DNA from: Bacteroidota bacterium
Lineage (GTDB): Bacteria > Bacteroidota > Bacteroidia > NS11-12g > UBA955
Reading direction: 5' to 3'
NCBI GenBank assembly: GCA_027621365.1
Contig: JAQCBH010000005.1
Location: forward strand, 54,658 to 118,657
DNA length: 64,000 bases
Both the position numbers and the translations under genes were made by a program. Below, piece after piece: positions 4,805 to 63,564 of the stretch. Within the stretch, counting starts at the first letter, position 1. Each line of letters opens with the position of its first letter. Under the pieces are notes generated by a model, which saw only the letters and a list, made by a program, of their open reading frames with translations, had not been told where the DNA came from and searched no databases.

Positions 4805-4812
4805 CAAAGGTA
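4805..4812 (-). promoter_or_regulatory. Putative Bacteroidota sigma-A -7 box (TACCTTTG) 4 nt upstream of the Hsp70 start. It is the left arm of an 11-bp inverted repeat.
   Basis: The minus strand reads GAGTACCTTTGcgtcATG. This matches the TAnnTTTG consensus established for Bacteroides promoters. Confidence 0.3.
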
Positions 4813-4911: not shown

Positions 4912-4919
4912 TACCTTTG
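4912..4919 (+). promoter_or_regulatory. Putative -7 box (TACCTTTG) 7 nt upstream of the ATG at 4927. It is the right arm of the inverted repeat.
   Basis: GAGTACCTTTGtagcgccATG. Matches TAnnTTTG. Confidence 0.3.
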
Positions 4920-16800: not shown

Positions 16801-17840
16801 TCGTTTTCAGAAGTCAAGCAGACCTTGTACCATCCAAATTCATTCAGAGTGAAAATGGGATTCTGATCAGTGGCCGTTTGGTCGTCTGCCCCTGTGGGAG
16901 AGTACAATTCCCAACTCCATTTGTAGGCGCCGTTGTCGCTCAAATCAAACAACTGTACATTGTAGTATTGCTCTACTTCATTCAAATCAGAAATAAAATC
17001 AGCATTAGGAGCAGCCGTAGGAGCCACAATTTTCACTGTATTTACAGCAGAATCTTTGTCTCCACAGTAGTCAACCATCAACTTTACATCATAAGTTCCC
17101 GCATTATTCCATGAGGCAATGCCCTTAACGGCATTATTGGAAACGATGGTTGACGCCTGGTCGAAGGTCCAATTGTAGGTCCAGTTTCCGCCGCCGCCTG
17201 CTGTGAAGACAGTAGGAGACTTTACATAACTGGTACCCGTAGGAACAGAAAAAGTCGCGGTTGGCTTGGTGACATTCAAGATATTCACCTCAAAGTCCAT
17301 GATGTTACCATAATTGTTCAGTGTTCCACAACCCTGTGAGGTCGAGAACGTGCTATACAAGCAACGAACACGCAAAATGGCAGTACCCGCGCTCTGATTG
17401 CCACAGGGAATTTTAATTTTCACCGTCTTGTTTTGGTAGGCAGCAATCCGTCCAAATGGGCCTGAAGGACCTGAAATACACTCGGTGGTTTGAAAGTTAT
17501 TGTCGCGATTCAAATCCAACCATACTCCGGCCCATTCCGCATAGGAACAACCGTTGGAGATGTACATTTCAATCTCCTCGCCTGGAGTGATGTCGATGCA
17601 GGGACCGCTGGTCATCAATTTGTTGGTTGCGCCAGTGTTGCCACAGGTCAAACCCGAGAAGGAGGCTACCTGCCCCTTGCTGTTTTTGATGGTCACGGCA
17701 TCGAACCAGTCGATGCTGCAACCGTAGGAGTTCGTTGCCGCGCAAATTTGAGCCTGAGCAGCATGCCCGAATCCCCAGGTGGAGGCCAACAAAAGCCCAG
17801 CCTTCCAACCCAAGTTTTTAAGCGTTTTAGTGAATTTCAT
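13809..17840 (-). CDS. Giant secreted adhesin-like protein (about 1343 aa). It has an N-terminal Cys-rich GEVED-like domain, PKD/Ig-like and multiple HYR-like repeats, and a T9SS C-terminal sorting domain.
   Basis: Signal peptide. N-terminal region has 10 or more Cys and YGNIMDFEV. Repeated D-x-x-GN-x-A-x-x-x-R-x-V-x-V-x-D-x-x-x-P units (ASGNKAEQRTRTVIVVLDRTAPV, AQGNTATATRLVQVRDTKKP, ESGNSTTKSRFVKVVDRKAPE). C-terminus …YTVRVIQGTEVQTQKLIINR. Confidence 0.8.
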   Translation of the reverse strand: MKFTKTLKNLGWKAGLLLASTWGFGHAAQAQICAATNSYGCSIDWFDAVTIKNSKGQVASFSGLTCGNTGATNKLMTSGPCIDITPGEEIEMYISNGCSYAEWAGVWLDLNRDNNFQTTECISGPSGPFGRIAAYQNKTVKIKIPCGNQSAGTAILRVRCLYSTFSTSQGCGTLNNYGNIMDFEVNILNVTKPTATFSVPTGTSYVKSPTVFTAGGGGNWTYNWTFDQASTIVSNNAVKGIASWNNAGTYDVKLMVDYCGDKDSAVNTVKIVAPTAAPNADFISDLNEVEQYYNVQLFDLSDNGAYKWSWELYSPTGADDQTATDQNPIFTLNEFGWYKVCLTSENDIGPSTTTCKSKYIECTSATEFYMGPSKEGNSKNGTLFDNGGPTANYGDNRKPSIDYFKILPCGAEKITLSFEELVLKDAGDKIRIYDATEADPSKEVTPTEGITSTNQAYWDTTDIVLTSGAGYITFETNGSGNDKGFILNWKSKLGPALPPNAKWTTDYNPAANSMAVTFANASTQTEGAPTYEWWVDQNVAGTGESYTEFFSTDGTYEVCLVAQTCNGNDTFCDNVTILTPTKPGALDYTADNVRPNVLDVVSFTTKTDYANKFESNIFPTSFTYMNGTSASSQNPQIKFLKGGAYTFTLKAWNSVGGDSATQKKLIKNKYVIVLDYCTPLVSMMSADVAINTVTLENSNGVKLINSNTDGGQAAYTSYAETKYPAVLTFGSTYDLTVTRLSNSNPVNYKAWVDWNIDGDFNDAGEEVMSTGSMTGTSASASVKVPKLSQSFEGLTRLRVAASFSNFSNTPCGVNQVGEYEDYLLKLANDMTVPTFRLVGSDTIRVERGSSKTSCYAEVANSTYSANDPTEGDMTSLVVVNSDLDCTVPGVYSITFDVEDASGNKAEQRTRTVIVVLDRTAPVLTLNGNTTITMEQCDTYSELGAVANDAVDGNLTSAIQISGSVDASTVGDYTLVYTVKDAQGNTATATRLVQVRDTKKPGIYRLNQRITDGATIDVQIKSPFVDEVYAMDDCNGSIFLSKNPGFNGQVNTQIRATYPITYKAKDPSGNAADEDGYTINYRVDDFIAPNIELNTSDTILHDVMTPYSSRSVTVSDNYYPLSQISVTKSGSVDVYTLGMYEESYTAIDESGNSTTKSRFVKVVDRKAPELVAPVVSACVGTPFWAISGIQVRDNYYSATDLMPLVEVVTHNVNIWQSGVYSITYQVTDPSGNQSNLVVREVYVEYPPNCFNTYMGVEEANAKGHLTVQPNPTRGEVTLVWKGIAQQKADISVINALGAVVYQLNGVENGFGRQTLDLSQVAPGMYTVRVIQGTEVQTQKLIINR

Positions 17841-34076: not shown

Positions 34077-34109
34077 CCAAGAATCACGCCCAGCCCTTAA
34101 CTTTGGAAC

Positions 34110-36071
34110 ATGGCCTCGCTCCTTTCCGTTTTGCATCGCCGCCTCGCTGCGCTCGGCGTCACCGCCCTTCTGTTCAGCACCGCCTTTTCCCAAACCTATA
34201 AACTAGGCACTCAAAAAGCCGACCGCGACCCCATCCCTGCGATTCAGGTTGAGCATCCCGAAGTGGACATTGTGCGCGATTTGCAAACGCCCTTGTGGCA
34301 TGTGTTTGACCCCCGCTTGGCCCCCGATGCATTTTTGGAACCCCAAGGCAAAGAAGGCGAAATGCCTCTACCCGAAGGCATCAACGAGGAGCTGCGAAAG
34401 AAAATTGACGCCCGCCGAGAAGCCAGCCTTCGCGGCCGCGAACTCTACAACCAAGACCCCACTCCAGCCGCCGACATTGCCCCCGTTGAACTCGAAGGTT
34501 TCGAGACAGGCGGCGGTGGAGGGACTCCCAATGACAACCACGTAGCAGTCGGCAAGGACGGCTCATTTGTGAGCGTCATGAACACCGTGATTCGCGTCTG
34601 GTCACCCGATGGCACTCTGAAAAAAGCATGGACTCTGATCAACTACAGCAAGGTCAACCCCAATGTAGACGATATTCCTACCCTGACTCGCGTTTATGAC
34701 CCACGGGTGATGTACGACCCTGAAGCCGATCGCTGGATGATCGTGTACATGCACGGCACCACCGACGTCAGCAGTTTCATTGTGGTGGGTTTCAGTACCA
34801 GTTCTGACCCTACCCAACCCTGGAACGTTTACAAAATCGACGGCAGCCCTACCGCTGATACTGCTTGGAGCGATTACCCGATCGTTTCTCAGACCTCCAA
34901 AGACTTATTTTTCACGGTCAACCTGTTGCTCAACGGTACTTCTTGGGAAGAAGGATTTCGCGAAGCAGTCATCTGGCAACTCAACAAGGCCGATGGTTAC
35001 GCCGGCAAGCCCCTGAACCAAAACCTGTTCAGAGGCATCAAATACGAGGGTGTGAGCATTTGGAGCATTTGCGCCATTCAGAACGGCCCTCAACCCACAG
35101 GCACTGACAATTATTTCATGAGCGTTCGCCCATACAGCGAACAAAACGACACTGTGTTTTTGCACCGCATCACCAACTCTTGGGAAAGCGGAAAGGCCGA
35201 ATACGAACTGCAGGTCATGCGCAGCGATCTCCCCTACGGATTTCCGCCTTCAGCCCTGCAACCCCAAGACGGCTTCAAACTCAGAACCAACGACGCCCGG
35301 GTGCTATCTGGAGTTCGCATCGGCAACCAGATTCACTACGGTCAAAACTGCATGAACTTCCAAACCCAGCAGGCACACCTCTTGCACGGAGTGATTTACG
35401 GACTGGATGAAACCCCCTTCATTCAAGCTCGACTGGTCACCCACGATAGCTTGGAATTCGGTTATCCTGCCTTCGCGGCCGCTGGAGATTCGGACCAGGA
35501 TCCCTCGGTTGCCATTTCTTTGGTATACAGCAGCCAATGGCACTTTCCCGGTGCTGGATTCTTGTACTGCAACCGCACCGGTGAATACAGCGATTACACC
35601 GTACTTAGAGCCGGAGAATCCATCATCAACTACACCTATATCGCTCCCAATGAACAACGCTGGGGCGATTACGAAGGTCTTCAAATGCAGTACAACAGTC
35701 CCCGCGAGTTTTACTCGGTGGGTTCCTACGGAAAGAAGAACCAAATGCTGGCCTACGTGGCTCGAGTCAATCTGATCGATAAAGTATTGGACCAGCCCGT
35801 TGCCGAGGTGCGTGTTTTCCCCGTTCCCAGTCAAGACCGAAGCCTGCAAATTGAAATCAAAGCCGACAAGCCTGGCCACTACGAGGCTTGGCTTGTGAAT
35901 GCCATTGGCCAAAGTTGGCACAACACCGACATCACCCAAGTTCAATTGGATCTCCCTGCTGGTACTCACCGCTACAAACTCAACACAGAAAACCTTTCAG
36001 CCGGAGTGTACACCCTGCAAATCGAAGGTCCTGAAGGCCCTTTGTACAGCCAAAAAATCGTATTGGAATGA
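34110..36071 (+). CDS. Secreted 653-aa protein of unknown function with a T9SS C-terminal sorting domain.
   Basis: Signal peptide. GGGGG linker. C-terminal ~80 aa (…LSAGVYTLQIEGPEGPLYSQKIVLE) is CTD-like. 4-bp overlap with truB. Confidence 0.7.
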   Translation: MASLLSVLHRRLAALGVTALLFSTAFSQTYKLGTQKADRDPIPAIQVEHPEVDIVRDLQTPLWHVFDPRLAPDAFLEPQGKEGEMPLPEGINEELRKKIDARREASLRGRELYNQDPTPAADIAPVELEGFETGGGGGTPNDNHVAVGKDGSFVSVMNTVIRVWSPDGTLKKAWTLINYSKVNPNVDDIPTLTRVYDPRVMYDPEADRWMIVYMHGTTDVSSFIVVGFSTSSDPTQPWNVYKIDGSPTADTAWSDYPIVSQTSKDLFFTVNLLLNGTSWEEGFREAVIWQLNKADGYAGKPLNQNLFRGIKYEGVSIWSICAIQNGPQPTGTDNYFMSVRPYSEQNDTVFLHRITNSWESGKAEYELQVMRSDLPYGFPPSALQPQDGFKLRTNDARVLSGVRIGNQIHYGQNCMNFQTQQAHLLHGVIYGLDETPFIQARLVTHDSLEFGYPAFAAAGDSDQDPSVAISLVYSSQWHFPGAGFLYCNRTGEYSDYTVLRAGESIINYTYIAPNEQRWGDYEGLQMQYNSPREFYSVGSYGKKNQMLAYVARVNLIDKVLDQPVAEVRVFPVPSQDRSLQIEIKADKPGHYEAWLVNAIGQSWHNTDITQVQLDLPAGTHRYKLNTENLSAGVYTLQIEGPEGPLYSQKIVLE

Positions 36072-36757
36072 GCGACCCAAACGCGGCTCCCCAAGAGGAA
36101 GGGCAAGTTTTCTTGTTCGACAAACCACTGGGATGGACCTCTTTTCAAGCGGTCAAAAAACTCAAATACTTGACCAAGTCCAAAAAGATCGGACATGCCG
36201 GGACCTTGGACCCCTTGGCTACCGGTTTGCTCATCATCTGCAGCGGCAAGAAAACCAAAACCATCGAAGGCATCCAGGCCCAACCCAAAGAATACGAAGC
36301 CACCATTCGACTGGGCGCCAGTACCCCGAGTTACGACTTGGAAACCGAGCCGGAAGAACATTGCGCTTGGGAGCACATCACAAGCTCTGACATCGAGAAA
36401 GCGCTGGAACAATTCAGAGGAGAAATCATGCAGACTCCGCCTTTGTTTTCTGCCATCAAGGTAGATGGAAAGCGGGCTTATGACATGGCGCGAGCGGGCA
36501 GCGACCACCAATTGAAGTCTCGCCCGGTGACCATTTACGCCTTTGATGTATTGGAGCAAGAGGGGCCTGACTTGAAGGTGCGCATTGCATGTTCCAAGGG
36601 TACCTACATTCGGAGCTTGGCCCATGACTTGGGTTTGAGTTTGGGCATTCGCTCACACCTAGCGGCTCTTCGACGCACCAAAATTGGCGATTTCGATGTT
36701 TCCCAAGCCCTGACTCCAGAGGGTTGGCAAGAACTTTTGCGTCCTGAAACTCATTGA
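36068..36757 (+). CDS. truB: tRNA pseudouridine(55) synthase.
   Basis: LFDKPLGWTSFQAVKKLK…GHAGTLDPLATGLL contains the catalytic Asp motif. Confidence 0.85.
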   Translation: MSDPNAAPQEEGQVFLFDKPLGWTSFQAVKKLKYLTKSKKIGHAGTLDPLATGLLIICSGKKTKTIEGIQAQPKEYEATIRLGASTPSYDLETEPEEHCAWEHITSSDIEKALEQFRGEIMQTPPLFSAIKVDGKRAYDMARAGSDHQLKSRPVTIYAFDVLEQEGPDLKVRIACSKGTYIRSLAHDLGLSLGIRSHLAALRRTKIGDFDVSQALTPEGWQELLRPETH

Positions 36758-36827
36758 TTCCCATACGCATTTCAGCGAACGGCTCCTGAACAAAAGTTTG
36801 GGCCGGTATTTGCTATCTTTGACTTCT

Positions 36828-47837: not shown

Positions 47838-47845
47838 CAAAGGTA
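47838..47845 (-). promoter_or_regulatory. Putative -7 box TACCTTTG 4 nt upstream of the MMPL start codon.
   Basis: The minus strand reads cGTACCTTTGCAGCATG. This matches TAnnTTTG and is almost identical to the Hsp70 upstream sequence GTACCTTTGCGTCATG. Confidence 0.3.
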
Positions 47846-50055: not shown

Positions 50056-50631
50056 ATGGAAGGTTCTCAGCTCTTTCAACACCGCTCCAGTTTGTTTTCT
50101 GGAAAATTGTGGATGATCACCCTAATCCCCATGATAGCATCGTTGACGCCCCTCATCTTGACGGCCCACGAGCGCCAACCCATTGAGGTCATCCCTCCCA
50201 TCATCATCTTAGCATTGGCCTTCGGTTTGATTGCTTTCATACAACTCGAATACCGCCTGCATTTTGCTGAAATCAAATTCCGCTTTCGCCCCTTTGTTCG
50301 CTGGAAAACCGCGGCATTGAACGACTATTCTGAAGTTCAGATATTGAAGATTAGCCCCATGAAAGAATTCGGCGGATGGGGACTTCGCTACGGCAGTCGA
50401 CTGGGGAAAGCCTATACCAGCCACGGGAAACACATCTTGCATTTTGTGCCAAAAGACGGCCAAAAACCCAAACTCATGAGCAGTTGGAAACCGGGTCAGC
50501 CTTTCAACCTGAGTATCAAGGAATCAGAATTGGACGCCGTCGAGCAAGCTTTGAAGGCTACAGGCATTAAGGTCACTCGTCAAACGGATTGTGTGGATGG
50601 CCATCGGCGACTAGCCCTAAGCAAACGTTGA
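50056..50631 (+). CDS. Hypothetical membrane protein with two N-terminal TM helices and a ~100-aa soluble domain. The start may be at the internal MITLIP.
   Basis: Hydrophobic helices LIPMIASLTPLILTA and IIILALAFGLIAFIQL. No recognisable motif. Confidence 0.45.
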   Translation: MEGSQLFQHRSSLFSGKLWMITLIPMIASLTPLILTAHERQPIEVIPPIIILALAFGLIAFIQLEYRLHFAEIKFRFRPFVRWKTAALNDYSEVQILKISPMKEFGGWGLRYGSRLGKAYTSHGKHILHFVPKDGQKPKLMSSWKPGQPFNLSIKESELDAVEQALKATGIKVTRQTDCVDGHRRLALSKR

Positions 50632-50799: not shown

Positions 50800-52875
50800 T
50801 TAAGCAACACCAGCACCGCTATTGACGGCTTGGTCAGGGCACATGAAATGCAGCTTGCCTTCGGCATCTTCGGCCATCAAGATCATGCCTTGACTTTCGA
50901 TGCCGCGCATGACGCGCGGCGCCAAATTCGCCAAATACAGCACTTGCTTTCCAACAACAGCCTCGGGCTCGAAGTGCTGGGCAATTCCACTCAATACCGT
51001 GCGTATCTCTTCGCCTACTTGCAACTCCAACTTGAGCAGTTTATCAGCTTTGGGAACGCGCTCGCAGTGGTTTACGGTGGCCACGCGCAAATCGAGTTTG
51101 GCAAAATCGTCGTATTGAATCATGGGTTTGAAAGCGGGGGTTGCGGGTTGGGCTGAGGCGGCCGGAGCGGCAGCGGAGGCCGCCAAAGAGGCTTGCAATT
51201 TGGCCATTTGTTGCTCGACCAGCTCGTCTTCGACTCGCTGGAACAACAAAGAAGGCTGAGCAATGCTATGACCAGCCGCCAAGGTTTGGGCCTGGCTCAA
51301 CCAAAACGCCTTTTTGCTCTCAGCCGATGGCTGGGCATTCAGCTGATCGAGCAGGCGCTGTGAGGCAAAGGGCATGAAGGGTTCCATGGCCAAGGCGGTA
51401 TTGTACAAGATCTGAACAGCGCGAGCCAAAACAGCCGAAGCCGCTTCAGGGTCTTCTTTGACCTTTTTCCAGGGCTCCAAATCGGCCAAAAACTTGTTTC
51501 CGTAACGGGCCAATTCCATCATAGCAAACTGGGCGTCGCGGAATCGGTATTCTTGGATCGATTGAGCAATGGGAGCAATGCGCTTGGACCACAGGTCTTC
51601 TATTGACCAGCTGTAATTGCTGGCATCCATCCAAGCTTGCGCTTGATCGGAGACCTCGGGTATGACCCCATTGTTGTATTTCTGAAGCAGTACCAAGACA
51701 CGGTTGGCGAAATTGCCCAAAATGCCGACCAACTCGGAATTCACACGGGTTTGATAATCCTTCCATGTAAACTCAGAATCTTTGGTTTCGGGAGCGATGG
51801 CCGTGAGTACATAGCGCAATTCGTCCTGCCTGTTTGGCAGTTCTTGCAAATATTCGTGCAACCACACCGCCCAATTGCGGCTGGTGCTGATCTTTTGTCC
51901 CTCTAAATTCAAAAATTCATTGGCGGGTACCTGGCTGGGCACGCAGTAGTTATCGCCGCGCAGGTGCAACATGGCCGGGAAAATGATGCAGTGAAAAACG
52001 ATGTTGTCTTTGCCGATGAAGTGAATCACTTCAGAATCGCCCGTCCACCAAAACTCCCAATCGTCGGGGCGCAACTCGCGGGTAGCCGAGATGTACCCAA
52101 TGGGAGCTTCGAACCACACATACAAAACCTTGCCATCGGCGCCCTCTACCGGAACAGGAATACCCCATTCCAAATCTCGGGTCATGGCGCGGGGTTTCAA
52201 ACCGTCATTCAACCAACTCTTGCACTGACCTAGAACATTGGACTTCCAATTCTGGCGGCTGCCTATGTACTCGTTCAAGAATTCGCTTTGCAAGCGATCC
52301 AGGGGCAAGTACCAATTTCGGGTTTCCTTTTTGATGGGCTCAGCCCCGCTCAATGCACTTTTGGGGTTGACTAATTCATCGGGACTCAAGGTAGATCCGC
52401 ATTTCTCGCACTGATCACCATAAGCCCCTTCGGCCGAACATTTGGGACAGGAGCCCACGATGTAGCGGTCGGCCAGAAACTGCTGGGTTTCAGGGTCGAA
52501 ATATTGCTCAGACACCTGAACATCAAAGGCCCCTTTTTCGAGCAAATTGGAAAAGAATTCCTGTGAGGTTTGTTTGTGAGCCGCCGAGGTGGTGCGGCTG
52601 TAGGTATCAAACGATATGCCCAAATCTTGGAAGGAGTCACCGATGGTTTTGTGGTAGCGATCGACCACATCTTGTGGGGTGATACCCTCCTTGCGAGCCC
52701 TAAGAGTAATGGGCACTCCATGCTCATCGCTTCCGCATATAAACAAGAGCTCCTCCCCCATCATGCGCAGCGTACGGGCATATATATCAGCGGGTACGTA
52801 AACGCCAGCCAAATGGCCAATGTGTACCGGACCGTTGGCATAAGGCAGGGCTGCGGTGATGGTTTTGCGACTCAT
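50800..52875 (-). CDS. metG: Methionine--tRNA ligase with a C-terminal tRNA-binding domain.
   Basis: ITAALPYANGPVHIGHLAG (HIGH motif). KISTSRN-type KMSKS region. Zinc knuckle CPKC…CEKC. Confidence 0.9.
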   Translation of the reverse strand: MSRKTITAALPYANGPVHIGHLAGVYVPADIYARTLRMMGEELLFICGSDEHGVPITLRARKEGITPQDVVDRYHKTIGDSFQDLGISFDTYSRTTSAAHKQTSQEFFSNLLEKGAFDVQVSEQYFDPETQQFLADRYIVGSCPKCSAEGAYGDQCEKCGSTLSPDELVNPKSALSGAEPIKKETRNWYLPLDRLQSEFLNEYIGSRQNWKSNVLGQCKSWLNDGLKPRAMTRDLEWGIPVPVEGADGKVLYVWFEAPIGYISATRELRPDDWEFWWTGDSEVIHFIGKDNIVFHCIIFPAMLHLRGDNYCVPSQVPANEFLNLEGQKISTSRNWAVWLHEYLQELPNRQDELRYVLTAIAPETKDSEFTWKDYQTRVNSELVGILGNFANRVLVLLQKYNNGVIPEVSDQAQAWMDASNYSWSIEDLWSKRIAPIAQSIQEYRFRDAQFAMMELARYGNKFLADLEPWKKVKEDPEAASAVLARAVQILYNTALAMEPFMPFASQRLLDQLNAQPSAESKKAFWLSQAQTLAAGHSIAQPSLLFQRVEDELVEQQMAKLQASLAASAAAPAASAQPATPAFKPMIQYDDFAKLDLRVATVNHCERVPKADKLLKLELQVGEEIRTVLSGIAQHFEPEAVVGKQVLYLANLAPRVMRGIESQGMILMAEDAEGKLHFMCPDQAVNSGAGVA

Positions 52876-52889
52876 GCCGCAAAGGTACA

Positions 52890-53222
52890 TCAATTGGGCA
52901 GTTCGCAGGCCCTTGAACCGAAGAGCCTGTATCGGTTTCTAGCCACCCATTTGTAGACGGCATCGCGAATCGGTGTGGGGAATAGAAACAGCAACTTCCA
53001 CAAGGGACCTCGGCAGCTGACCATGGCGCGAATCACTGCCGTAGAATAGATGTATGTTCGACCCTCTTCTATCCAGATCAGGCTATCCACACCGCTTTGC
53101 ATCCGATCTTGATTCTCTTGAATGGGCAGAAAGCGTACGTTTTTAGCCCGTTTGCCGCGTTGAATGAACGCCACGCAGCGGCTACAAAAACTGCAATCCC
53201 GATCAAAGTACAATTCTGGCAT
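52890..53222 (-). CDS. DCC-family thiol-disulfide oxidoreductase (DUF393).
   Basis: MPELYFDRDCSFCSRCVAFIQ contains the DxxCxxC motif. The start ATG shares one nucleotide with the upstream stop (TAATG). Confidence 0.7.
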   Translation of the reverse strand: MPELYFDRDCSFCSRCVAFIQRGKRAKNVRFLPIQENQDRMQSGVDSLIWIEEGRTYIYSTAVIRAMVSCRGPLWKLLFLFPTPIRDAVYKWVARNRYRLFGSRACELPN

Positions 53223-56200
53223 TAGGGCAATCGATTGAGGTATTGATCTACGGCTTGTTGATAGGGCCAACTTAAGGGTACCGCCGCGCGGTGCAAGGCC
53301 TCGGCTTCTTCCAATTTTTTTCGGATGGGCAAGGCCCATTCTTCGGGTATCTCTGAGGCCTGGCCCTGAGATTGCTCACCCCTTCTCTGCTCGTCTTGCT
53401 GTTGCTTTCGCTCTCCTTTTTCGTGCTCCAATAAACGCGTCAAGATCTCCTGTTGACGGAATTGCAACTGCGGCCCTAGTTGGCCGTTGATCAAATCCCG
53501 CTCCTGCTGCTCCATCAATTGCTCGGCCTCGTGCAGCAAATGCGCTGCACCTGGATCCCCCGCCTCGGCTGCCGCCTGTTTGAGCTTTTGAATTTCCCGC
53601 CTCAATTGCTCCTGCATGAGGGCCATTTGCCCCAATTCTTGGCTGAGTTGACGCTGTTGGCCTTGACTTCCACTTTGCCCGGATTGCCCTTGTGATTGCA
53701 TTTGCTGCAATTTTTCTCCCAAGGCTTTTTGGCTTTGGGACAAGCCTTGACCCGGCTTGGGTTTTCCCTGCTGACCGGGACCTTGTTTGTTGGGATTGTT
53801 GCAACTCTGGGAACCGCTTTTTTTCTGCTGAGCCGAGAGTTGTTGCTGCATGTTTTGCATGCTCTCCATCAAGAGAGCCGCCAAGGTATTGTAGGAGGTC
53901 ATGACGAATTGTTCGTGCATAGCTGCCGTGCGCAAATCCCTCTTCTTTAGTGATTGCAAGCCTTGCTCCATGCGGCGATTTACTTTGCTCATCTCACCCG
54001 TTACGATGCTGCTGATCATGGGCTGTCGGCGGGCCAAAGCCATGAGCGAATCTTCAACCGCCGTGCTCAATTCCCGAATTTCCATTTGCTGCTTGTTCAA
54101 GGCCAACACCCGCGGATTCTCGCCCGACAAGCTTTGCAACTCGGTAAACACGGCCTCTTGCCTCTTGCTCAAATCAATCAAATTGGCCAGCAAACGCCTC
54201 AAGGTTTCATAGTCTTCTTCCATGCGCTCTTCTTGGGCTTGATCCATGCTTTTCTGCAACTTTTCAGCCGCTTTTTTCATTTGATCAGCCGCTGACTTCT
54301 GTTGTTCAGAAGCTGCCTTTTGCTCGCCCTTTTCCAAGCTCTGCTGGGCTTGTTCGGCTTGACTCTGGGCTTGTGACTGTTCCGACTTGGGCACATCCAA
54401 TCCTAGAGGCTTTTCCAGGTCGGCATCGCGTTTTTCTATTTCTTGGCTGCGCTCGAGAATAGACTCCAACTGCTCCAATTGCTTTTCATGAGCCTGTTCC
54501 AAAGCCTGTTTTTCCGCCTCGGTCTTGGCCTGTTTGGAGGCCTCTGATAAAGCCTCCTCTTGCTCGGCCCAATCCTGCATCTGCTGCACTTGCTGATCGA
54601 GTAGTCGCTCGAGTTGCAGCTCTTTGATCTGCTCTTGCACATTGTCCAATTGCTTTTGGATGTCTTGGCGCATTCGGCTGATTTCTTGCATCTTTTGCCT
54701 AACCTCATCGGGCTCAGCCTTCTGGTTCAGCAAGTCTTGCAATTCTTTCATCAGCTTTTCGAGCTCGGCATTTTGCTTGAGCTCATTCAAACTTTCTTCC
54801 ACCTGCTTTTCCCTAAGGCTCTGCTCCTTTTGGCTGGGGTCCAATTCCAATTTCTTTTGGCTTTCGGCCAATTTCTGGGTCTGCGCTTGAAGTTGCTTTT
54901 GCTCGTTCAACCACTGCTGTACCGACTGTTTTTTATCGGCATCAAAACCCGATTCTTGCAGCAAACTTCGCTGCAAATCGCTGGCCCGTTTTTGCAAGTC
55001 TTGCTGGGCCTTGCTCGCTTTGCTCAGACCCGACTCCACTTGGTTCTGTTTGTCCAATTGCCACTGTTGCAATTCCCGCTGATCAGGCATTCGCAGCACT
55101 TGAGTCAAAGATTGAGCACACTGAGAACCCAATACCGCATTGTTGTCACAAGCGCGGCTGTAAACCAATATTTCTTCTCCGGGATTGGCCCCGTAATCTT
55201 GGGCTCGCAAATCTGCGACAAATGCAGCGCTGTGTTCGCGGTATTCAACCGGAACCGTCAACCGGGTAAACTGCGTTTGCCTTGGCCCTTTTACCCAGCA
55301 ATCCAAGGTTTGCAAACCGTGATCATCGATGGCCAATGATCGCAAGTACCAATGACCAGACTGACTGCTATCGGCCTGGGCCTCCAGCTCTACTTGAGGA
55401 GGGGCGTCGGCGACTACTTCAATGTGCAAGCACAAGGAATCTCCCCAAGCTGGCAAGCCCTTTCTTGGCTGACTGGAGCGAAGGGCGTAGACCCAATCTT
55501 CGCTGCTTCTCAGGTTCCGGGAAAAGCGCAATTGACCCTTTTTGATCTCTTTGGCCAGGTGAAAACTGCCAGAAAATTCGAGCAAATCGGCATGCGCAGC
55601 TTCCATCACCAAAGTCAATTCCGTGCCTGCCGGTACGATGACCGTACCCTGAGTTGGCCACTGAAGGGGCGCCTGGGAGTGCAGGTAAGAGGGGTATCGA
55701 GCCTCCAATCGAAGCGAAACAAAGCGGGGTGGTGCCCAAACGGGAAGCTCAAAAGGCTGAGAAACGAACTCGCCAGCCGCAAATCGCAGTTGCTTTCCTT
55801 GAGCAGCTCCCGACAATCGAAACGAGAAGGAATCGGGCCCCACCGACTGCATCAAATACTCCCCATCACCCCACAGACAGCGAACCGTAGAGGGAATTTC
55901 CCTGCCCTTGAGCTTGAGGGAAACTACGTATTCTCTGCCTTCTATCCAGGGCTCATTCGAGGGGTAAAAACAAAACTCAAAGGGGGCCGGCTTGGAAAAT
56001 TCTTGATCGTGCTGCCAGAGGCGTTGGGCTCCGCTCATCAAGCGCGAGGCATCCAAAACAAACCACAAACCAACCAATCCCAGCCCTACCGATAAACGGA
56101 TGGCCAGTTTCCGAAATGCTGCTGGATCCAGGGCCTGCCAAAAGGAAATGGGAGTCAAAGCCATAGACCGCTGCTCAATGGCGGCTTCCACCCAGACATC

Positions 56201-56572
56201 GGCCGCTTGGGCTTGCTTCAATTGCAGCAGGTTGATCAGCTTATCCTGGACTTCAGGAAAATGTTCGCCGATTTGCAGCGCTGCCTCTTCTCGAGTCAAG
56301 CGAGGCAACCAGGCACGGTATTGGGCAAAGGGCCGAATGACCAGCAACAAAGCAGATAGGCCCGAGGCCGTCAATAGCAAATAATATCCCCCGGTACGCA
56401 GCGAAGTGGACATCCACAGCCAATGTTCACCATAGGCCAATAGGAGCAACAAGAGCCCCGAACCCAGGCCCCAGAACAACAAACCGCGCAGAAATCGATG
56501 CCAATGGTATTGGTCGATGTAGGCGTCTAATTTGCGCTCAATGCTGCTCAAAGGAGTGGAAGGCTCCATCAT
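53222..56572 (-). CDS. Large (1116 aa) membrane-anchored protein with a long Q/E/K-rich coiled coil. It is possibly a member of the Bacteroidota DUF4175-like family.
   Basis: Two N-terminal TM helices (GLLFWGLGSGLLLLLLAYG, GGYYLLLTASGLSALLLVI). A ~350-aa mixed domain. About 450 aa of heptad-like Q/E/K/L repeats. Q/G/S low-complexity tracts (QGQSGQSGSQGQQRQ). Confidence 0.8.
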   Translation of the reverse strand: MMEPSTPLSSIERKLDAYIDQYHWHRFLRGLLFWGLGSGLLLLLLAYGEHWLWMSTSLRTGGYYLLLTASGLSALLLVIRPFAQYRAWLPRLTREEAALQIGEHFPEVQDKLINLLQLKQAQAADVWVEAAIEQRSMALTPISFWQALDPAAFRKLAIRLSVGLGLVGLWFVLDASRLMSGAQRLWQHDQEFSKPAPFEFCFYPSNEPWIEGREYVVSLKLKGREIPSTVRCLWGDGEYLMQSVGPDSFSFRLSGAAQGKQLRFAAGEFVSQPFELPVWAPPRFVSLRLEARYPSYLHSQAPLQWPTQGTVIVPAGTELTLVMEAAHADLLEFSGSFHLAKEIKKGQLRFSRNLRSSEDWVYALRSSQPRKGLPAWGDSLCLHIEVVADAPPQVELEAQADSSQSGHWYLRSLAIDDHGLQTLDCWVKGPRQTQFTRLTVPVEYREHSAAFVADLRAQDYGANPGEEILVYSRACDNNAVLGSQCAQSLTQVLRMPDQRELQQWQLDKQNQVESGLSKASKAQQDLQKRASDLQRSLLQESGFDADKKQSVQQWLNEQKQLQAQTQKLAESQKKLELDPSQKEQSLREKQVEESLNELKQNAELEKLMKELQDLLNQKAEPDEVRQKMQEISRMRQDIQKQLDNVQEQIKELQLERLLDQQVQQMQDWAEQEEALSEASKQAKTEAEKQALEQAHEKQLEQLESILERSQEIEKRDADLEKPLGLDVPKSEQSQAQSQAEQAQQSLEKGEQKAASEQQKSAADQMKKAAEKLQKSMDQAQEERMEEDYETLRRLLANLIDLSKRQEAVFTELQSLSGENPRVLALNKQQMEIRELSTAVEDSLMALARRQPMISSIVTGEMSKVNRRMEQGLQSLKKRDLRTAAMHEQFVMTSYNTLAALLMESMQNMQQQLSAQQKKSGSQSCNNPNKQGPGQQGKPKPGQGLSQSQKALGEKLQQMQSQGQSGQSGSQGQQRQLSQELGQMALMQEQLRREIQKLKQAAAEAGDPGAAHLLHEAEQLMEQQERDLINGQLGPQLQFRQQEILTRLLEHEKGERKQQQDEQRRGEQSQGQASEIPEEWALPIRKKLEEAEALHRAAVPLSWPYQQAVDQYLNRLP

Positions 56573-57330
56573 TTATCGAAAGGTAACGCAAATTCTGCGA
56601 CACCCCGTTCACGCAGTCGACGAACGGCATTGTCTAGCGATATACCCGCCGCCATAGCCGCGTTCAAACTCTCGGCTTGGCCCAAACGGGGAATGGTAAA
56701 TCGATGCAAATTCTCCAGCTCTTCGCCCATGCGAATGCCGTGCGACTCGCTGCCAATCAACAGCACGGACGGGGCCTCAAAGGGGGCATCATACAGAGAA
56801 GTCCCTTCCAAATAGGCACCAAAAACTCGCTTGTTTTTCAGGGCTTCAGCCAAATTGACGTAGACCACCTGCACCCTCAAAAAGGAGCCCATGCTCGCAG
56901 CCAGGCACTTGGGGTTGTATTGATCAACTGTGTCTTCAGAGGCCAAAACTTGGGTCATTCCGTACCAGTCGGCCAAACGAATCAGGGTTCCGAGATTGCC
57001 GGGATCGGCCAATCCATCAACAGCCAAGGTCAAAGGAGCTTGGTCTTGCCAAGTCTGCGCCGCAGGCATGATGACCACCGCCATAATACCCGGCGCCGTT
57101 TCGAATTGGCTCAGGCGCTTCATGTCGGCATCGCTGATGATTTCGCAAGTTTCGGGCAAGGCCTGCTTGGAAGCGTAGGATTCACTGGCCATAACCGCTT
57201 CTAGCTTCGCCCCTCTGTGGATTACTTCGTCTACGACCTTGCGCCCCTCAACTGTGAATAGCCCATATTTTTGTCGATACTTGGGCATTCGCAGAGAAGC
57301 GTATTGTTTCAATTTCGCAGCAGATGGCAT
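56569..57330 (-). CDS. TrmH/SpoU-family RNA 2'-O-methyltransferase (RlmB-like).
   Basis: SpoU substrate-binding N-domain. DPGNLGTLIRLADWYG. LIGSESHGI. ESLNAAMAAGISL. Confidence 0.85.
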   Translation of the reverse strand: MPSAAKLKQYASLRMPKYRQKYGLFTVEGRKVVDEVIHRGAKLEAVMASESYASKQALPETCEIISDADMKRLSQFETAPGIMAVVIMPAAQTWQDQAPLTLAVDGLADPGNLGTLIRLADWYGMTQVLASEDTVDQYNPKCLAASMGSFLRVQVVYVNLAEALKNKRVFGAYLEGTSLYDAPFEAPSVLLIGSESHGIRMGEELENLHRFTIPRLGQAESLNAAMAAGISLDNAVRRLRERGVAEFALPFDK

Positions 57331-57371
57331 GGCAGAGACACAAATATCATAGAAATAAAGCCTTCCTGCTA

Positions 57372-59705
57372 ATGGCTCTGCTGTTGTTCCTCTCCAGCTG
57401 CGGGGTAAAACGCTGCATTCCCGAGGGTCGCTTGTTGCTCAAACAAAACAGCATCACCCTGGTGGAGACCGAATCGGTCCCCTTTCGACCCAACAGAGAC
57501 GAGCTGCAAGCACAAATTTTGCATAGACCCAATAAGCGGGTTTTGTTCAACAAGTTGCCCATTTACCTGTGGTTCTATGCCCTGGGTTATGACGCCAAAG
57601 ACACCAGCAAAATCAGCCAAAGTGCGTTTCGCAGCCGATTGGTGAAACAAATGGGGGAAGAACCCATGCTCGTTGACAAGAGCTTGGCTCAACTCTCAGC
57701 CAACAACATTCGCAATTACCTGTTCAACAAAGGGTTTTTTGATGCCGAAGTGGGCTATTCCATCGAGGTACACGGTCACAAGGGAGCTGTGCGCTACCAC
57801 GTGTACTCGGGCCTGCCTTACCGCATCAACTCGGTCTTCAAAAACACCGCTGATTCTGGAATGGCCACATTGGTCGACAGCCTAACCAAATCGATGAATA
57901 CCTTTCGTCTCTGGTGGCCCAGCGACTTGAATCGATTCAAAACTGCCCGGGAAGAATTGACCAGCCAGCTGAGAGACTTGGGCTATTACGGCCTGCAACC
58001 CAGCGTATTTCACTACGACATCGACACCTTGTTCGCCAAAAAGGAGGCCCAAATCACCCTGTACATGGATGGCCAAGCCGATGGGGAGCCCTATCAAGTC
58101 TGGAAATTTGGCAGCGTGTACATGGACATTCAGTGCCCCGATGACTATGCCCTAAATCCCCTGTATCATGAATGGGCACACTTGGGAGCCCATCACTACA
58201 AAATGAATCATTATGCGCTGAAGCCCTTTGTACTTCGCAAGGTGATTTTGATCGACAGCGGGCAGCGTTATTCCCAGACCCGCATCAACCAGACCTACCG
58301 CGGATTGGTCGACATGGGCCTTTTTTCTTACGTAGAATTTCGTCTGGAGCCAGACTCCCAACAGCACGTGCTCAACGTTCGCATCCAAACCCAAGCCCTT
58401 CCGCGAATTCGCTGGATGGTCGAGCCCCAAATGCTCTATAGCCCCCAAGGAAGCAGCGGCACGAACTTCACTTCCAGCACCCAACGCAGTTTTGGCTTGG
58501 CCGGAATCATGTCCTTCAACAACTTGAACGCCATGGGCAACGGAGAACAGCTTCGACTCTCCGCCCTGACTTCGTTCGAAGCCATTTTCAAACGCAATGA
58601 CCTCGGCAATTTCGCCTACGGCTTGCAACAAGGATTCTCGGCCAGCATGACCGTTCCCAGCTTTCGCCTGCTGGATAAAATGGATGCCAAAAACCAGTAC
58701 GAGCGCAAAAACACCGTCTTCAGTTTGAGCTACCAAACCGAGAGCAACCCCAACTTTTTGCGCACCTCCCTGCCCGCCTCCTTCTCCCTGCAGTTCATTC
58801 GCCCCAACTTCAGCTGGTACTACACCCCGCTCGAATTCAGCTACAACCAAAACGAATTGGACCCCGCTTTCCTACCCCAGCTCAGCACCCTAGACCAGGA
58901 GTTTGTTCGCCGCGTATTCACCGACCAATTGATCACCGCCGCCAAAGTGGGCATGGTATACTCCAACAACCAAGACAAGCCCGGACAGAGCTACTTCTTC
59001 TCTCGCTTAGGTTTGGAAACCAGTGGCAACATGCACCGCCTGGGACGCTACTTGTTCGAACCCAATTACAACCCCGATTCCAATTACCAATTCTTTGGTG
59101 TGAACTACTTCCAGTACGCCAAATTGGGAGCCGAAATTCGGGTGCGTCACCACATCGACGAATTGAACACCATCGCCGTGCGATTGAATTCGGGCCTGGC
59201 CCTACCCTACTGGAACAGCGATGTGGTGCCCTACGACAAACGCTATTTCATCGGGGGTTCCAACAGCCTGCGGGCTTGGCAGCCCCGCCGCTTGGGTCCC
59301 GGAGCCACGCCAGAATCGGTGGGCAGCTTGATTGACCGATCGGGCGAGTTGCTGCTGGAAGCTTCGATTGAATACCGCTTTGGGGTGATCAAGAATTTCT
59401 TGGAAAGTGCCCTGTTTTTGGATGCCGGAAACATCTGGAACCTGAGTGTAGCCGGAGTCTCCAATCCCGATTACGGCGTATTCAACCGCAATACGTTCTT
59501 GTCGGAAGTAGCGCTCAACACCGGCATAGGTTTTCGATTCGATGTCGAAATCTTCATGTTCCGAGTCGACTGGGGAATTCCCATTCGAGACCCCAGTAAG
59601 CCCCTTGACCAGCGCTGGGTCATGAAGCAAATTCCGAGCACAGGTTTGGCCAATTGGACCTTCAAGGAGACGGCCGTGGCCATCGGCATAGGCTACCCAT
59701 TTTAA
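57372..59705 (+). CDS. Omp85-family (BamA/TamA-like) outer-membrane protein. The start was placed at MALLLFLSSCG; 57324 is the alternative.
   Basis: N-terminal signal peptide with SSCG. POTRA-like region. C-terminal 16-strand barrel with GGSNSLRAW, ending …AIGIGYPF. Confidence 0.85.
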   Translation: MALLLFLSSCGVKRCIPEGRLLLKQNSITLVETESVPFRPNRDELQAQILHRPNKRVLFNKLPIYLWFYALGYDAKDTSKISQSAFRSRLVKQMGEEPMLVDKSLAQLSANNIRNYLFNKGFFDAEVGYSIEVHGHKGAVRYHVYSGLPYRINSVFKNTADSGMATLVDSLTKSMNTFRLWWPSDLNRFKTAREELTSQLRDLGYYGLQPSVFHYDIDTLFAKKEAQITLYMDGQADGEPYQVWKFGSVYMDIQCPDDYALNPLYHEWAHLGAHHYKMNHYALKPFVLRKVILIDSGQRYSQTRINQTYRGLVDMGLFSYVEFRLEPDSQQHVLNVRIQTQALPRIRWMVEPQMLYSPQGSSGTNFTSSTQRSFGLAGIMSFNNLNAMGNGEQLRLSALTSFEAIFKRNDLGNFAYGLQQGFSASMTVPSFRLLDKMDAKNQYERKNTVFSLSYQTESNPNFLRTSLPASFSLQFIRPNFSWYYTPLEFSYNQNELDPAFLPQLSTLDQEFVRRVFTDQLITAAKVGMVYSNNQDKPGQSYFFSRLGLETSGNMHRLGRYLFEPNYNPDSNYQFFGVNYFQYAKLGAEIRVRHHIDELNTIAVRLNSGLALPYWNSDVVPYDKRYFIGGSNSLRAWQPRRLGPGATPESVGSLIDRSGELLLEASIEYRFGVIKNFLESALFLDAGNIWNLSVAGVSNPDYGVFNRNTFLSEVALNTGIGFRFDVEIFMFRVDWGIPIRDPSKPLDQRWVMKQIPSTGLANWTFKETAVAIGIGYPF

Positions 59706-59711
59706 GCCTTT

Positions 59712-60512
59712 TTGCTGCTTATCTTTGTGTTCATGCGATTGCTGTTTTTACTGCCCTTGACGCTCTTGATGGATGCCTGTGCCAGCTTGGTTGGCAACCT
59801 CAATGTCTTCCCCGTTCAGTACGACAAAGATTTGGGGGCCCAGGTCGCCCGCAACATCGATTCCACGAACGCGGCCACCTTGTTGGATTCTGCTCAGCAC
59901 GTCGAGTTGTACGCCTACCTCTACGGCATTCGCGATTCCATTTTGAAAACCGGACAGCTCGAGCACAGCGCTGACTTTGCCTGGAGATTGCGCATACTCA
60001 ACGACAGCACCTTGAACGCTTTCTGCACCCCCGGCGGATACATTTATTTCTACACCGGATTGATGCGTTACCTGGAAAGCGAAGACCAACTCGCTGGTGT
60101 CATGGCCCATGAAATGGCTCATGCTGACAAGCGTCACTCCACCGATGCGTTGACCCGTCAATACGGAACTGAAATCCTCCTGACGCTAGCCTTGGGCGGC
60201 GCCCAACCTTCCATGCTTCTTCAAATTGCCGAAGGATTGACCCATCTATCGTACGGCCGCAGCGCCGAAACCGAGTCAGATTTGAGCAGCGTGGATTGGC
60301 TGTACAAAACCGCCTACAACCCCACTGGAGCTGCTGGCTTTTTCAAGAAAATGCTGGATAGCAAAGCCCAAGAACCTCCTCAATTTTTGAGCACTCACCC
60401 CAATTCCGACAACCGCGTAGAAGCCATGACTGAACATTGGCAGTCGCTAGGTGGCAAGACCGGCCAAACCTTTGAAGAGCGCTACAAAGCCAAACTCAAA
60501 CTCATACCTTGA
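59712..60512 (+). CDS. M48-family zinc metalloprotease, lipoprotein-type and without TPR repeats.
   Basis: Signal peptide with a Cys in LLMDAC. HEXXH motif in VMAHEMAHADKRH. 6-bp gap after the Omp85 gene. Confidence 0.8.
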   Translation: MLLIFVFMRLLFLLPLTLLMDACASLVGNLNVFPVQYDKDLGAQVARNIDSTNAATLLDSAQHVELYAYLYGIRDSILKTGQLEHSADFAWRLRILNDSTLNAFCTPGGYIYFYTGLMRYLESEDQLAGVMAHEMAHADKRHSTDALTRQYGTEILLTLALGGAQPSMLLQIAEGLTHLSYGRSAETESDLSSVDWLYKTAYNPTGAAGFFKKMLDSKAQEPPQFLSTHPNSDNRVEAMTEHWQSLGGKTGQTFEERYKAKLKLIP

Positions 60513-63556: not shown

Positions 63557-63564
63557 CAAATTTA
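63557..63564 (-). promoter_or_regulatory. Putative -7 box TAAATTTG 8 nt upstream of the clpC ATG.
   Basis: The minus strand reads gaTAAATTTGatgcaagcATGGAAGCT. Confidence 0.3.

Follow-up and report, generated by a model that had tools for sequence, protein, structure and literature searches.

What does a 1116-amino-acid (aa) membrane protein do when its gene is packed between genes for RNA modification, redox chemistry and aminoacylation? The question is raised by the DNA analysed here, a 64-kb stretch of contig JAQCBH010000005.1 from a Bacteroidota bacterium (the window), in which four consecutive co-directional open reading frames (ORFs) lie on the minus strand within 50.8-57.3 kb: a SpoU/TrmH-family methyltransferase, the 1116-aa "giant", a DCC1-like protein and metG. 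An earlier note, made from the letters alone, had read them as a translationally coupled operon and the giant as a coiled-coil protein, perhaps of the envelope and with a link to translation or stress; its observation was confirmed in part, and its interpretation was supported in part. The four co-directional genes were all present, as the Pfam and NCBIfam identities and the ORF map made clear. Taken as a whole, we regard it as moderately probable that the giant gene (53222..56572, minus strand, delimited by its ORF, the family profile and the AlphaFold2 (AF2) model) is a real member of a DUF4175 branch, that its operon is specific to its lineage, and that its product is a periplasmic scaffold acting together with the MoxR/Bat machinery.

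Whether the large ORF was a gene at all had been left as a doubt. Its Q/E/K-rich composition gives long antisense ORFs and a strong AT skew, and the Pfam match of the window protein was sub-threshold, both of which would fit a gene that had been fused or frameshifted, or an artefact of low complexity. A first homologue search returned 19 full-length homologues with 24-96% identity, all of 1050-1170 aa. Word-index searches were swamped by low-complexity words and gave 19-28 matches, and an exhaustive profile search was used instead; among 1.84 billion representatives it detected 3,243 clusters (50% identity) at E<=1e-30 and 10,264 at E 1e-10. The best 150 clusters aligned end to end, with lengths of 1070-1324 aa (median 1118, interquartile range (IQR) 1110-1130), their representatives being mutually diverged (<50% identity). 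In the 15-sequence alignment, 54 columns were invariant and were distributed along the entire protein (residues 49-1111), and an orthologue with 63% identity carried no frameshift. With more than 150 such representatives of the same length aligning from end to end, the chance of an artefact is practically negligible, and that explanation was refuted by the homologue set, the alignment and the exhaustive profile search together. As judged from these alignments, the product of the 1116-aa gene is demonstrably full-length and ordinary among the members of a very large Bacteroidota family.

The earlier note had guessed at DUF4175, and at the level of the family the guess was right. PF13779, the Pfam model of DUF4175, was matched by 15/15 aligned members at E<=0.01 (best E-value 1.4e-12), and two full-length homologues exceeded its cutoff (P0014 with 47.0 bits and P0007 with 35.6 bits). 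In the 1116-aa protein the match was located at aa 304-428 and covered about 120 of the 825 model positions; when aa 190-500 were taken alone, the score was 21.8 bits. On the strength of these matches, the family is placed in the uncharacterised DUF4175/TIGR02302 superfamily, of which it forms a divergent branch in Bacteroidota, and the membership of the window protein would hold by transitive full-length homology, not by its own score. The name "TIGR02302 family protein" would be wrong for it, and the family proteins were annotated "hypothetical" in the sources. A sequence search of the PDB with the family profile returned designed coiled coils only, and segment-wise Pfam scans (E<=5) of the transmembrane (TM) module and the C-terminal helices gave nothing meaningful, with no BatA_N match. 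Deletion of a TIGR02302 gene in Azorhizobium caulinodans reportedly led to overproduction of exopolysaccharide, going by the title of a 2016 report by Sato cited in PMC6842974.

The predicted anatomy of the protein was next read from hydropathy, the alignment and the AF2 model (mean predicted local distance difference test score (pLDDT) 76.5), all features being encoded on the minus strand. The earlier note had described two TM helices followed by a mixed domain of about 350 aa. It is clear from the hydropathy profile that there are three hydrophobic segments (aa 27-49, 61-83 and 155-176), and AF2 placed helices at aa 7-52, 56-85 and 150-173. TM helix 1 (aa 27-49) and TM helix 2 (aa 61-83) would form an N-terminal membrane hairpin (56324..56494), and TM helix 3 (aa 155-176) is encoded at 56045..56110. 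Between them lies a helical linker (aa 86-154; 56111..56317) with the signature HFPEVQDKLLNxLQL; it is the best-conserved segment, with 38% identity to distant members and with G102, D110, L112, N114, Q117 and L118 invariant in the 15-sequence alignment. In place of the mixed domain, AF2 and Foldseek pointed to three tandem Ig/FN3-like beta-sandwich domains (aa 198-280, 283-387 and 393-494, thus aa 198-494; 55091..55981), which had a pLDDT of about 80-92 and carried the motifs APFEF, YPxY, VPxGT, DDxGL and DN[DN]xV. The Pfam DUF4175 match fell in this part. For this part, the Foldseek matches in the PDB were tandem Ig/FN3 ectodomains or bacterial surface proteins only, with E-values from 7e-7 to 1e-3.

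The Ig-like domains are followed by a Q/E/K-rich helical region of about 420 residues (aa 498-916; 53825..55081), whose total length is nearly constant in the family; between aa 498 and 918, AF2 modelled some 11 helices, each 15-64 residues long. The third beta domain ends with the DN[DN]xV motif, and the spacing between this motif and LRxxLxxL was determined among mutually diverged representatives (<50% identity; P0004 and P0030-P0178); in the 80 sequences with both motifs its IQR was 316-318 residues, and this segment was only about 23% identical between distant members. The next conserved segment after this spacer was exactly 98 residues long in 47/47 sequences measured. Such conservation of length is striking for a Q/E/K-rich region. 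The earlier note's membrane-anchored coiled coil stood in so far as the protein is predicted to be anchored and largely helical; a canonical coiled coil found only moderate support from the heptad periodicity in a Fourier test, and fold searches with the whole model matched compact four-helix bundles. The "450-residue coiled coil" may be better seen as consecutive helical bundles whose total length is fixed. The Q/G/S low-complexity spacers described before proved real, being recognised by composition and by the model as Q/G/S/P-rich stretches at aa 917-981 (53630..53824), with pLDDT <50 and predicted disorder at aa 917-942 and 961-981. The C-terminal helical tail (aa 982-1116; 53225..53629), delimited by alignment and AF2, contains the conserved RQQxILTRLLExEK and a terminal Y-x3-V-x2-Y.

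The count of three TM segments, the K/R-rich N-tail and the Ig-like domains together suggest that the N-terminus and the linker are cytoplasmic and that everything after TM helix 3 is periplasmic. The reverse possibility was also considered, namely that the large domain stays in the cytoplasm, where the protein, tethered to the membrane, would be a scaffold of the cytoskeleton or of cell division like EzrA or the AdvA protein of Acinetobacter. AdvA of Acinetobacter baumannii, which is annotated with DUF4175, has an N-terminal DUF4175 segment and two TM helices and is essential for division (PMC7481262), and the positive-inside signal of the giant protein is too weak to fix the topology. On the other hand, the three hydrophobic segments and the K/R-rich N-tail favour an N-in/C-out arrangement, tandem Ig/FN3 domains with Q/G/S linkers are typical of extracytoplasmic proteins, the likeness to AdvA is one of annotation, and no division genes were found as neighbours in 92 loci. 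We thus consider a cytoplasmic scaffold improbable.

To place the four-gene set, related loci were found with a 6-sequence alignment and the neighbours were mapped onto 87 homologous Bacteroidota-type loci, 80 of which came from GTDB species representatives. Three arrangements were obtained. In type A, the gene for TamL stands divergently beside SpoU-giant-(DCC)-metG; it comprises the window and L001 and L002 (63% identity). A 1.6-kb fragment with 99% identity (L043) shows giant-DCC-metG only. L008, also of type A, is without the DCC gene, and L009 is without it and has metG convergent; in both, SpoU and the giant gene do not overlap and are separated by about 40-80 nucleotides (nt). In type B, which accounts for 67/87 loci (L003-L007 and L015-L087; for example L004, 8001-13733), the order is giant-(small HATPase_c_2 kinase-like gene)-ybeY-mnmG-(S-adenosylmethionine methyltransferase), with the HATPase_c_2 gene in 18 loci and gltX divergent upstream in 43. 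The labels of these loci include Flavobacteriaceae, Cyclobacteriaceae, Bacteroidales and Saprospiraceae. The type B order is unusually stable for Bacteroidota. In type C (about 10 loci; L010-L014, L060, L075 and L082, for example L012, 4755-10980), the giant gene is followed by tsaB, whose start overlaps the giant stop codon, and a thioredoxin-like gene and an RlmD/TrmA-like U5-methyltransferase gene run away from it on the other side.

Outside the window, the full SpoU-giant-DCC-metG order was thus present in L001 and L002 only, among the 87 loci, and the four-gene linkage was not conserved across Bacteroidota, where giant-ybeY-mnmG is found in 67/87 loci; loss of the linkage in relatives was one of the two outcomes that the earlier note had named as refuting its reading. 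Since the order is confined to the nearest relatives and 67 loci carry giant-ybeY-mnmG, the four-gene operon is a recent, local and lineage-specific packing of housekeeping genes.

The same survey bears on the idea that the protein is tied to translation or RNA maturation, either as a membrane platform or through coupled expression by which envelope growth would be matched to translational capacity. SpoU lies upstream of the giant gene in the window, L001, L002, L008 and L009; 67 loci have ybeY-mnmG on the downstream side, and in 43 of them gltX is divergent on the other; tsaB sits on the giant stop codon, with a divergent RlmD/TrmA-like methylase, in about 10 loci; an RsmI-like methylase stands two genes upstream in L092, the locus of a distant homologue; and giant-ybeY recurs in loci whose labels are Flavobacteriaceae, Cyclobacteriaceae, Bacteroidales, Saprospiraceae and others. 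The partner gene is, however, a different one in each context, so that no specific interaction is conserved, and translation-related genes are the commonest conserved housekeeping class, for which chance adjacency is not rare. An unrelated 653-aa protein in the same window, encoded after murB, overlaps truB in a similar manner. Moreover, the Ig-like domains resemble extracytoplasmic proteins only, and the non-Bacteroidota homologues are encoded in MoxR/BatA operons and not beside RNA genes. This explanation is therefore unlikely. The adjacency to RNA genes could be due to chance among core housekeeping genes, and a real functional link between the giant protein and its RNA-modification neighbours is quite improbable. 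From the translation link proposed in the earlier note there is left a small residue of support, an RNA-modification or RNA-maturation gene beside the giant gene in three contexts, with the partner varying by context and none conserved.

The preferred explanation, a periplasmic scaffold acting with MoxR/Bat, was drawn from more distant homologues. In L088 (8001-16741) the order is homologue-TPR/Peptidase_MA_2-MoxR(AAA_3)-DUF58-BatA(vWA), and in L091 (162-8973) it is DUF4159-MoxR-DUF58-BatA-homologue, with overlapping junctions. In L092 (7339-11204) the order is DUF4159-homologue, the RsmI-like methylase mentioned above being two genes upstream, and in L090 (8001-13794) it is homologue-GATase1_like. 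When two distant homologues were aligned with the family by hhalign, probabilities of 99.1 (columns 282-889) and 99.0 (columns 81-573) were obtained, the latter alignment covering the YPxY, DDxGL and DND motifs; by profile comparison, the two distant proteins were confirmed as true homologues of the family. An association of DUF4175-type proteins with MoxR-DUF58-BatA was not described in the literature searched. MoxR-DUF58-vWA operons have been reported to affect envelope integrity, cell shape and oxidative-stress tolerance (PMC3893208, PMC5700661, PMC11834572); of these operons, RL3499-RL3502 has an effect on envelope integrity, the vWA domain of BatA-type proteins points into the periplasm (PMC3893208, PMC5700661), and in a flavobacterium the survival of oxidative stress is influenced by the Bat operon (PMC11834572). 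In Rhodobacter sphaeroides, the TIGR02302 gene RSP_0730 appears in a table of binding sites of CenR, an envelope regulator (PMC9275681).

Because distant homologues are encoded inside those operons, we propose that the protein may be a partner or client of the MoxR AAA+/DUF58/vWA (BatA)/DUF4159 machinery. The 1116-aa protein would be anchored in the inner membrane with its N-terminus and linker in the cytoplasm, where the conserved linker may serve as a site of regulation or of partner binding, and the part after TM helix 3 would form a fixed-length periplasmic scaffold of Ig-like domains and helices. Going by its relatives, such a scaffold would probably act in envelope maintenance or stress tolerance, so that the envelope or stress role put forward in the earlier note is plausible. 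A more far-reaching version, in which the 316-318-residue helical segment is a periplasmic "ruler" working with MoxR/DUF58/vWA and the linkage to RNA genes is a selected co-regulation of envelope and translation in Bacteroidota, appears to us rather doubtful.

Several results weigh against the scaffold and its MoxR/Bat partnership. The predicted template modelling score (pTM) of the AF2 model of the 1116-aa protein was only 0.41, so the packing of the domains is uncertain. The positive-inside signal was weak, with K+R values of 4.3, 1.3, 2.7 and 2.1 for successive loops. The 1116-aa protein itself scored 17.7 bits against PF13779, for which the cutoff is 27.3, and it had no match at E<=0.01 in NCBIfam, TIGR02302 included. 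MoxR/Bat genes stood beside the giant gene in 0/87 Bacteroidota loci, and the partnership is extrapolated from homologues that align over about half of the protein. Finally, a co-directional RNA modification or maturation neighbour was present in 3/3 Bacteroidota contexts, which the scaffold model leaves unexplained. A Bat operon near the giant gene was also looked for and rejected, there being no MoxR, DUF58 or BatA genes within the 64-kb window.

The operon itself was examined at its junctions, every one of which had been described as overlapping. Two of these overlaps were seen as described: at the SpoU/giant junction GATAAATGATGG, the ATG and the TGA share ATGA in a 4-nt overlap, and at the giant/DCC junction CCCTAATGCC, which is TAATG, the DCC ATG and the giant TAA stop have one base in common. 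The third was not upheld. The 4-nt overlap of DCC and metG requires a TTG start at 52893, and in L001, the relative with 63% identity, one extra base throws the TTG/ATG out of the metG frame. The metG of L001 must begin at a downstream ATG (MTRKTI...), whose equivalent in the window is the ATG at 52875 (MSRKTI...). Given this frame shift, and given that the alignment to the MetG profile NF001100 begins at residue 7 of the longest metG ORF, the real start of metG is assigned to ATG 52875, 14 nt past the DCC stop.

The short spacer so defined contains TACCTTTG (52880..52887, minus strand), a perfect match to TAnnTTTG located 4 nt upstream of the metG ATG. TAnnTTTG is the -7 promoter consensus of Bacteroidota. 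The box is kept in L001, in L043 and in the much more distant L008. Besides metG, at least seven further genes of the window have TAnnTTTG 4-8 nt ahead of their ATG, these seven being the genes for DnaK, ClpC, an MMPL transporter, an M48 protease, an AhpC-like protein, a type IX secretion system (T9SS) cargo protein and the 653-aa protein. The start-proximal boxes lie at 4805-4812 (-), 4912-4919 (+), 34098-34105 (+), 36814-36821 (+), 47838-47845 (-), 52880-52887 (-), 59720-59727 (+) and 63557-63564 (-). Over the window as a whole the motif was not enriched (30 matches vs 32.5 expected) but was strongly concentrated upstream of start codons, 10/30 boxes having the ATG of an ORF of at least 80 codons within 15 nt as compared with 5.5% of random positions. 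With TACCTTTG conserved and the box concentrated ahead of other starts in the window, metG probably has its own promoter. The position of the boxes suggests that leaderless or near-leaderless mRNAs are common in the source organism. A scan for sigma-70 promoters and terminators of the window gave nothing beyond chance, and terminator-like hairpins were not above chance; for the sigma-70 scan such a null result is expected in Bacteroidota.

Ahead of the first gene, GATATTTG (57341-57348, minus strand) is a putative promoter for the SpoU-giant-DCC unit; it is a -7-type box with one mismatch, recognised from sequence only, and precedes the SpoU ATG by 10 nt. It falls in the ORF extension of TamL, the divergent neighbour, whose longest ORF shares 7 nt with SpoU in a head-to-head overlap (57324-57330). 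A promoter-like box of TamL, TATTTTTG (57266-57273, plus strand), lies inside the SpoU coding sequence.

Stop/start coupling of this kind is ordinary and the default of this genome. With longest-ORF starts, overlaps were counted in 11/32 co-directional adjacent ORF pairs of the window, and in six of these the overlap is exactly 4 nt; as about one-third of the same-strand pairs do so, the overlaps seen here are no more than chance. Since overlaps are the norm and metG has its own start and promoter-like box, the SpoU-giant-DCC-metG arrangement is no proof of a four-protein functional unit. The obligate co-translation with trmH, a redox protein and metG claimed in the earlier note found no support, in view of the separate start and promoter-like box of metG and of the absence of the DCC gene in L008 and L009.

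The first product (253 aa; 56569..57330, minus strand, identified by Pfam and NCBIfam) is an RNA 2'-O-methyltransferase of the SpoU/TrmH family. It matched PF00588 (SpoU_methylase) at 7e-27 and, at its N-terminus, the MRM3-like substrate-binding domain PF22435 at 2e-11. The label trmH given to it before was not borne out: the score against TrmH (NF008295) was 29.1 bits with a cutoff of 227, and the top NCBIfam match, RlmB (TIGR00186), was better at 74.6 bits vs a cutoff of 160, so that the protein falls below every equivalog cutoff. The safe name is "SpoU/TrmH-family RNA methyltransferase", with trmH kept as a family label only. As RlmB is the top match, the substrate would seem no less likely to be rRNA than tRNA.

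The DCC1-like thiol-disulfide oxidoreductase (110 aa; 52890..53222, minus strand; PF04134, 3.6e-20) carries a DxxCxxC motif. Its gene is present in L001, L002 and L043 and absent in L008 and L009, and by this distribution is placed as a lineage-specific insertion between the giant gene and metG. No evidence was found for a functional tie of the giant to the DCC1-like protein. In type C loci and in L091 and L092, thioredoxin-like genes do stand in the neighbourhood. The last gene, metG, encodes a methionine--tRNA ligase of 691 aa from ATG 52875 (50800..52875, minus strand; NF001100, 812 bits). Convergent with it is a 191-aa ORF (50056-50631, plus strand) with no Pfam or NCBIfam match; a 177-aa counterpart occupies the same position in L001 and L002, likewise without Pfam matches.

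On the other side, TamL is an Omp85-family lipoprotein (57324..59705, plus strand; NF052279, 524 bits). The NF052279 alignment begins at residue 17 of the longest ORF, and the true start is likely the ATG at 57375, directly ahead of the lipobox (MALLLFLSSC). Beyond TamL lie an M48 protease, an NlpC/P60 hydrolase and ClpC, and other genes of the window encode T9SS cargo proteins, a TonB-dependent receptor, DsbD, MurB, TruB, Skp/OmpH and UvrC; the remaining window is a normal segment of a Bacteroidota chromosome. Rfam and tRNA scans of the window detected no RNA genes. One of the T9SS cargo proteins (1343 aa; 13809-17840, minus strand) has GEVED, PKD, bacterial Ig-like, HYR and Por_Secre_tail domains. 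The 653-aa protein (34110-36071, plus strand), which follows murB and has no Pfam match at E<=1e-5, overlaps truB (36068-36757, plus strand) by 4 nt; here, for a second time in the window, the gene of an uncharacterised protein adjoins one for tRNA modification.

The four-gene operon is thus ordinary and carries little weight; the value of the locus lies in its leads at the level of the family. A protein of about 1,100 aa that occurs across much of Bacteroidota in more than 3,200 clusters, with a rigid length and a clear domain plan, is annotated only as "hypothetical", and the present analysis offers a concrete lead on this large family, as yet uncharacterised, and on the Bat/MoxR envelope-stress system, which is likewise little understood. 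Orthologues may be available in the tractable Flavobacterium johnsoniae and Bacteroides thetaiotaomicron.

Among the closest known systems is Pfam DUF4175/TIGR02302, a family of alphaproteobacterial membrane proteins about 850 aa long, which have 2-3 TM helices at the N-terminus and low-complexity sequence rich in Gln/Gly. The 1116-aa protein likewise has N-terminal TM helices, a central region aligning to the Pfam model, with YPxY, DDxGL and DND, a C-terminal half that is long and helical, and Q/G-rich spacers. It differs in being about 250 aa longer, in its very tightly conserved length and in its Bacteroidota-specific neighbours (ybeY-mnmG, tsaB and SpoU). The Bat/MoxR-DUF58-vWA "aerotolerance" operons were also compared, namely Bat of Bacteroides fragilis, RL3499-RL3502 of Rhizobium leguminosarum and bb0170-bb0176 of Borrelia. 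Their proteins are membrane-anchored like the giant protein, and distant homologues are encoded inside such operons (L088 and L091) or beside DUF4159 or GATase1_like genes of the kind found with such operons (L092 and L090); the giant protein, however, is not a named Bat protein and has no vWA, TPR or AAA domain.

In TolA and TonB, an inner-membrane anchor is followed by a long helical or low-complexity segment able to cross the periplasm. The giant protein would resemble them by analogy only, as it also appears to combine an inner-membrane anchor with a long helical and low-complexity part; no sequence or fold relationship was found, no TolQR/ExbBD genes are nearby, and, in contrast to a single extended helix, it has three TM helices, three Ig-like domains and helices resembling four-helix bundles. 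AdvA shares with the giant protein an N-terminal TM pair that belongs, by annotation, to the same Pfam family, and it stands in a context of envelope and division; its DUF4175 segment and both of its TM helices lie upstream of residues 203-238 (PMC7481262).

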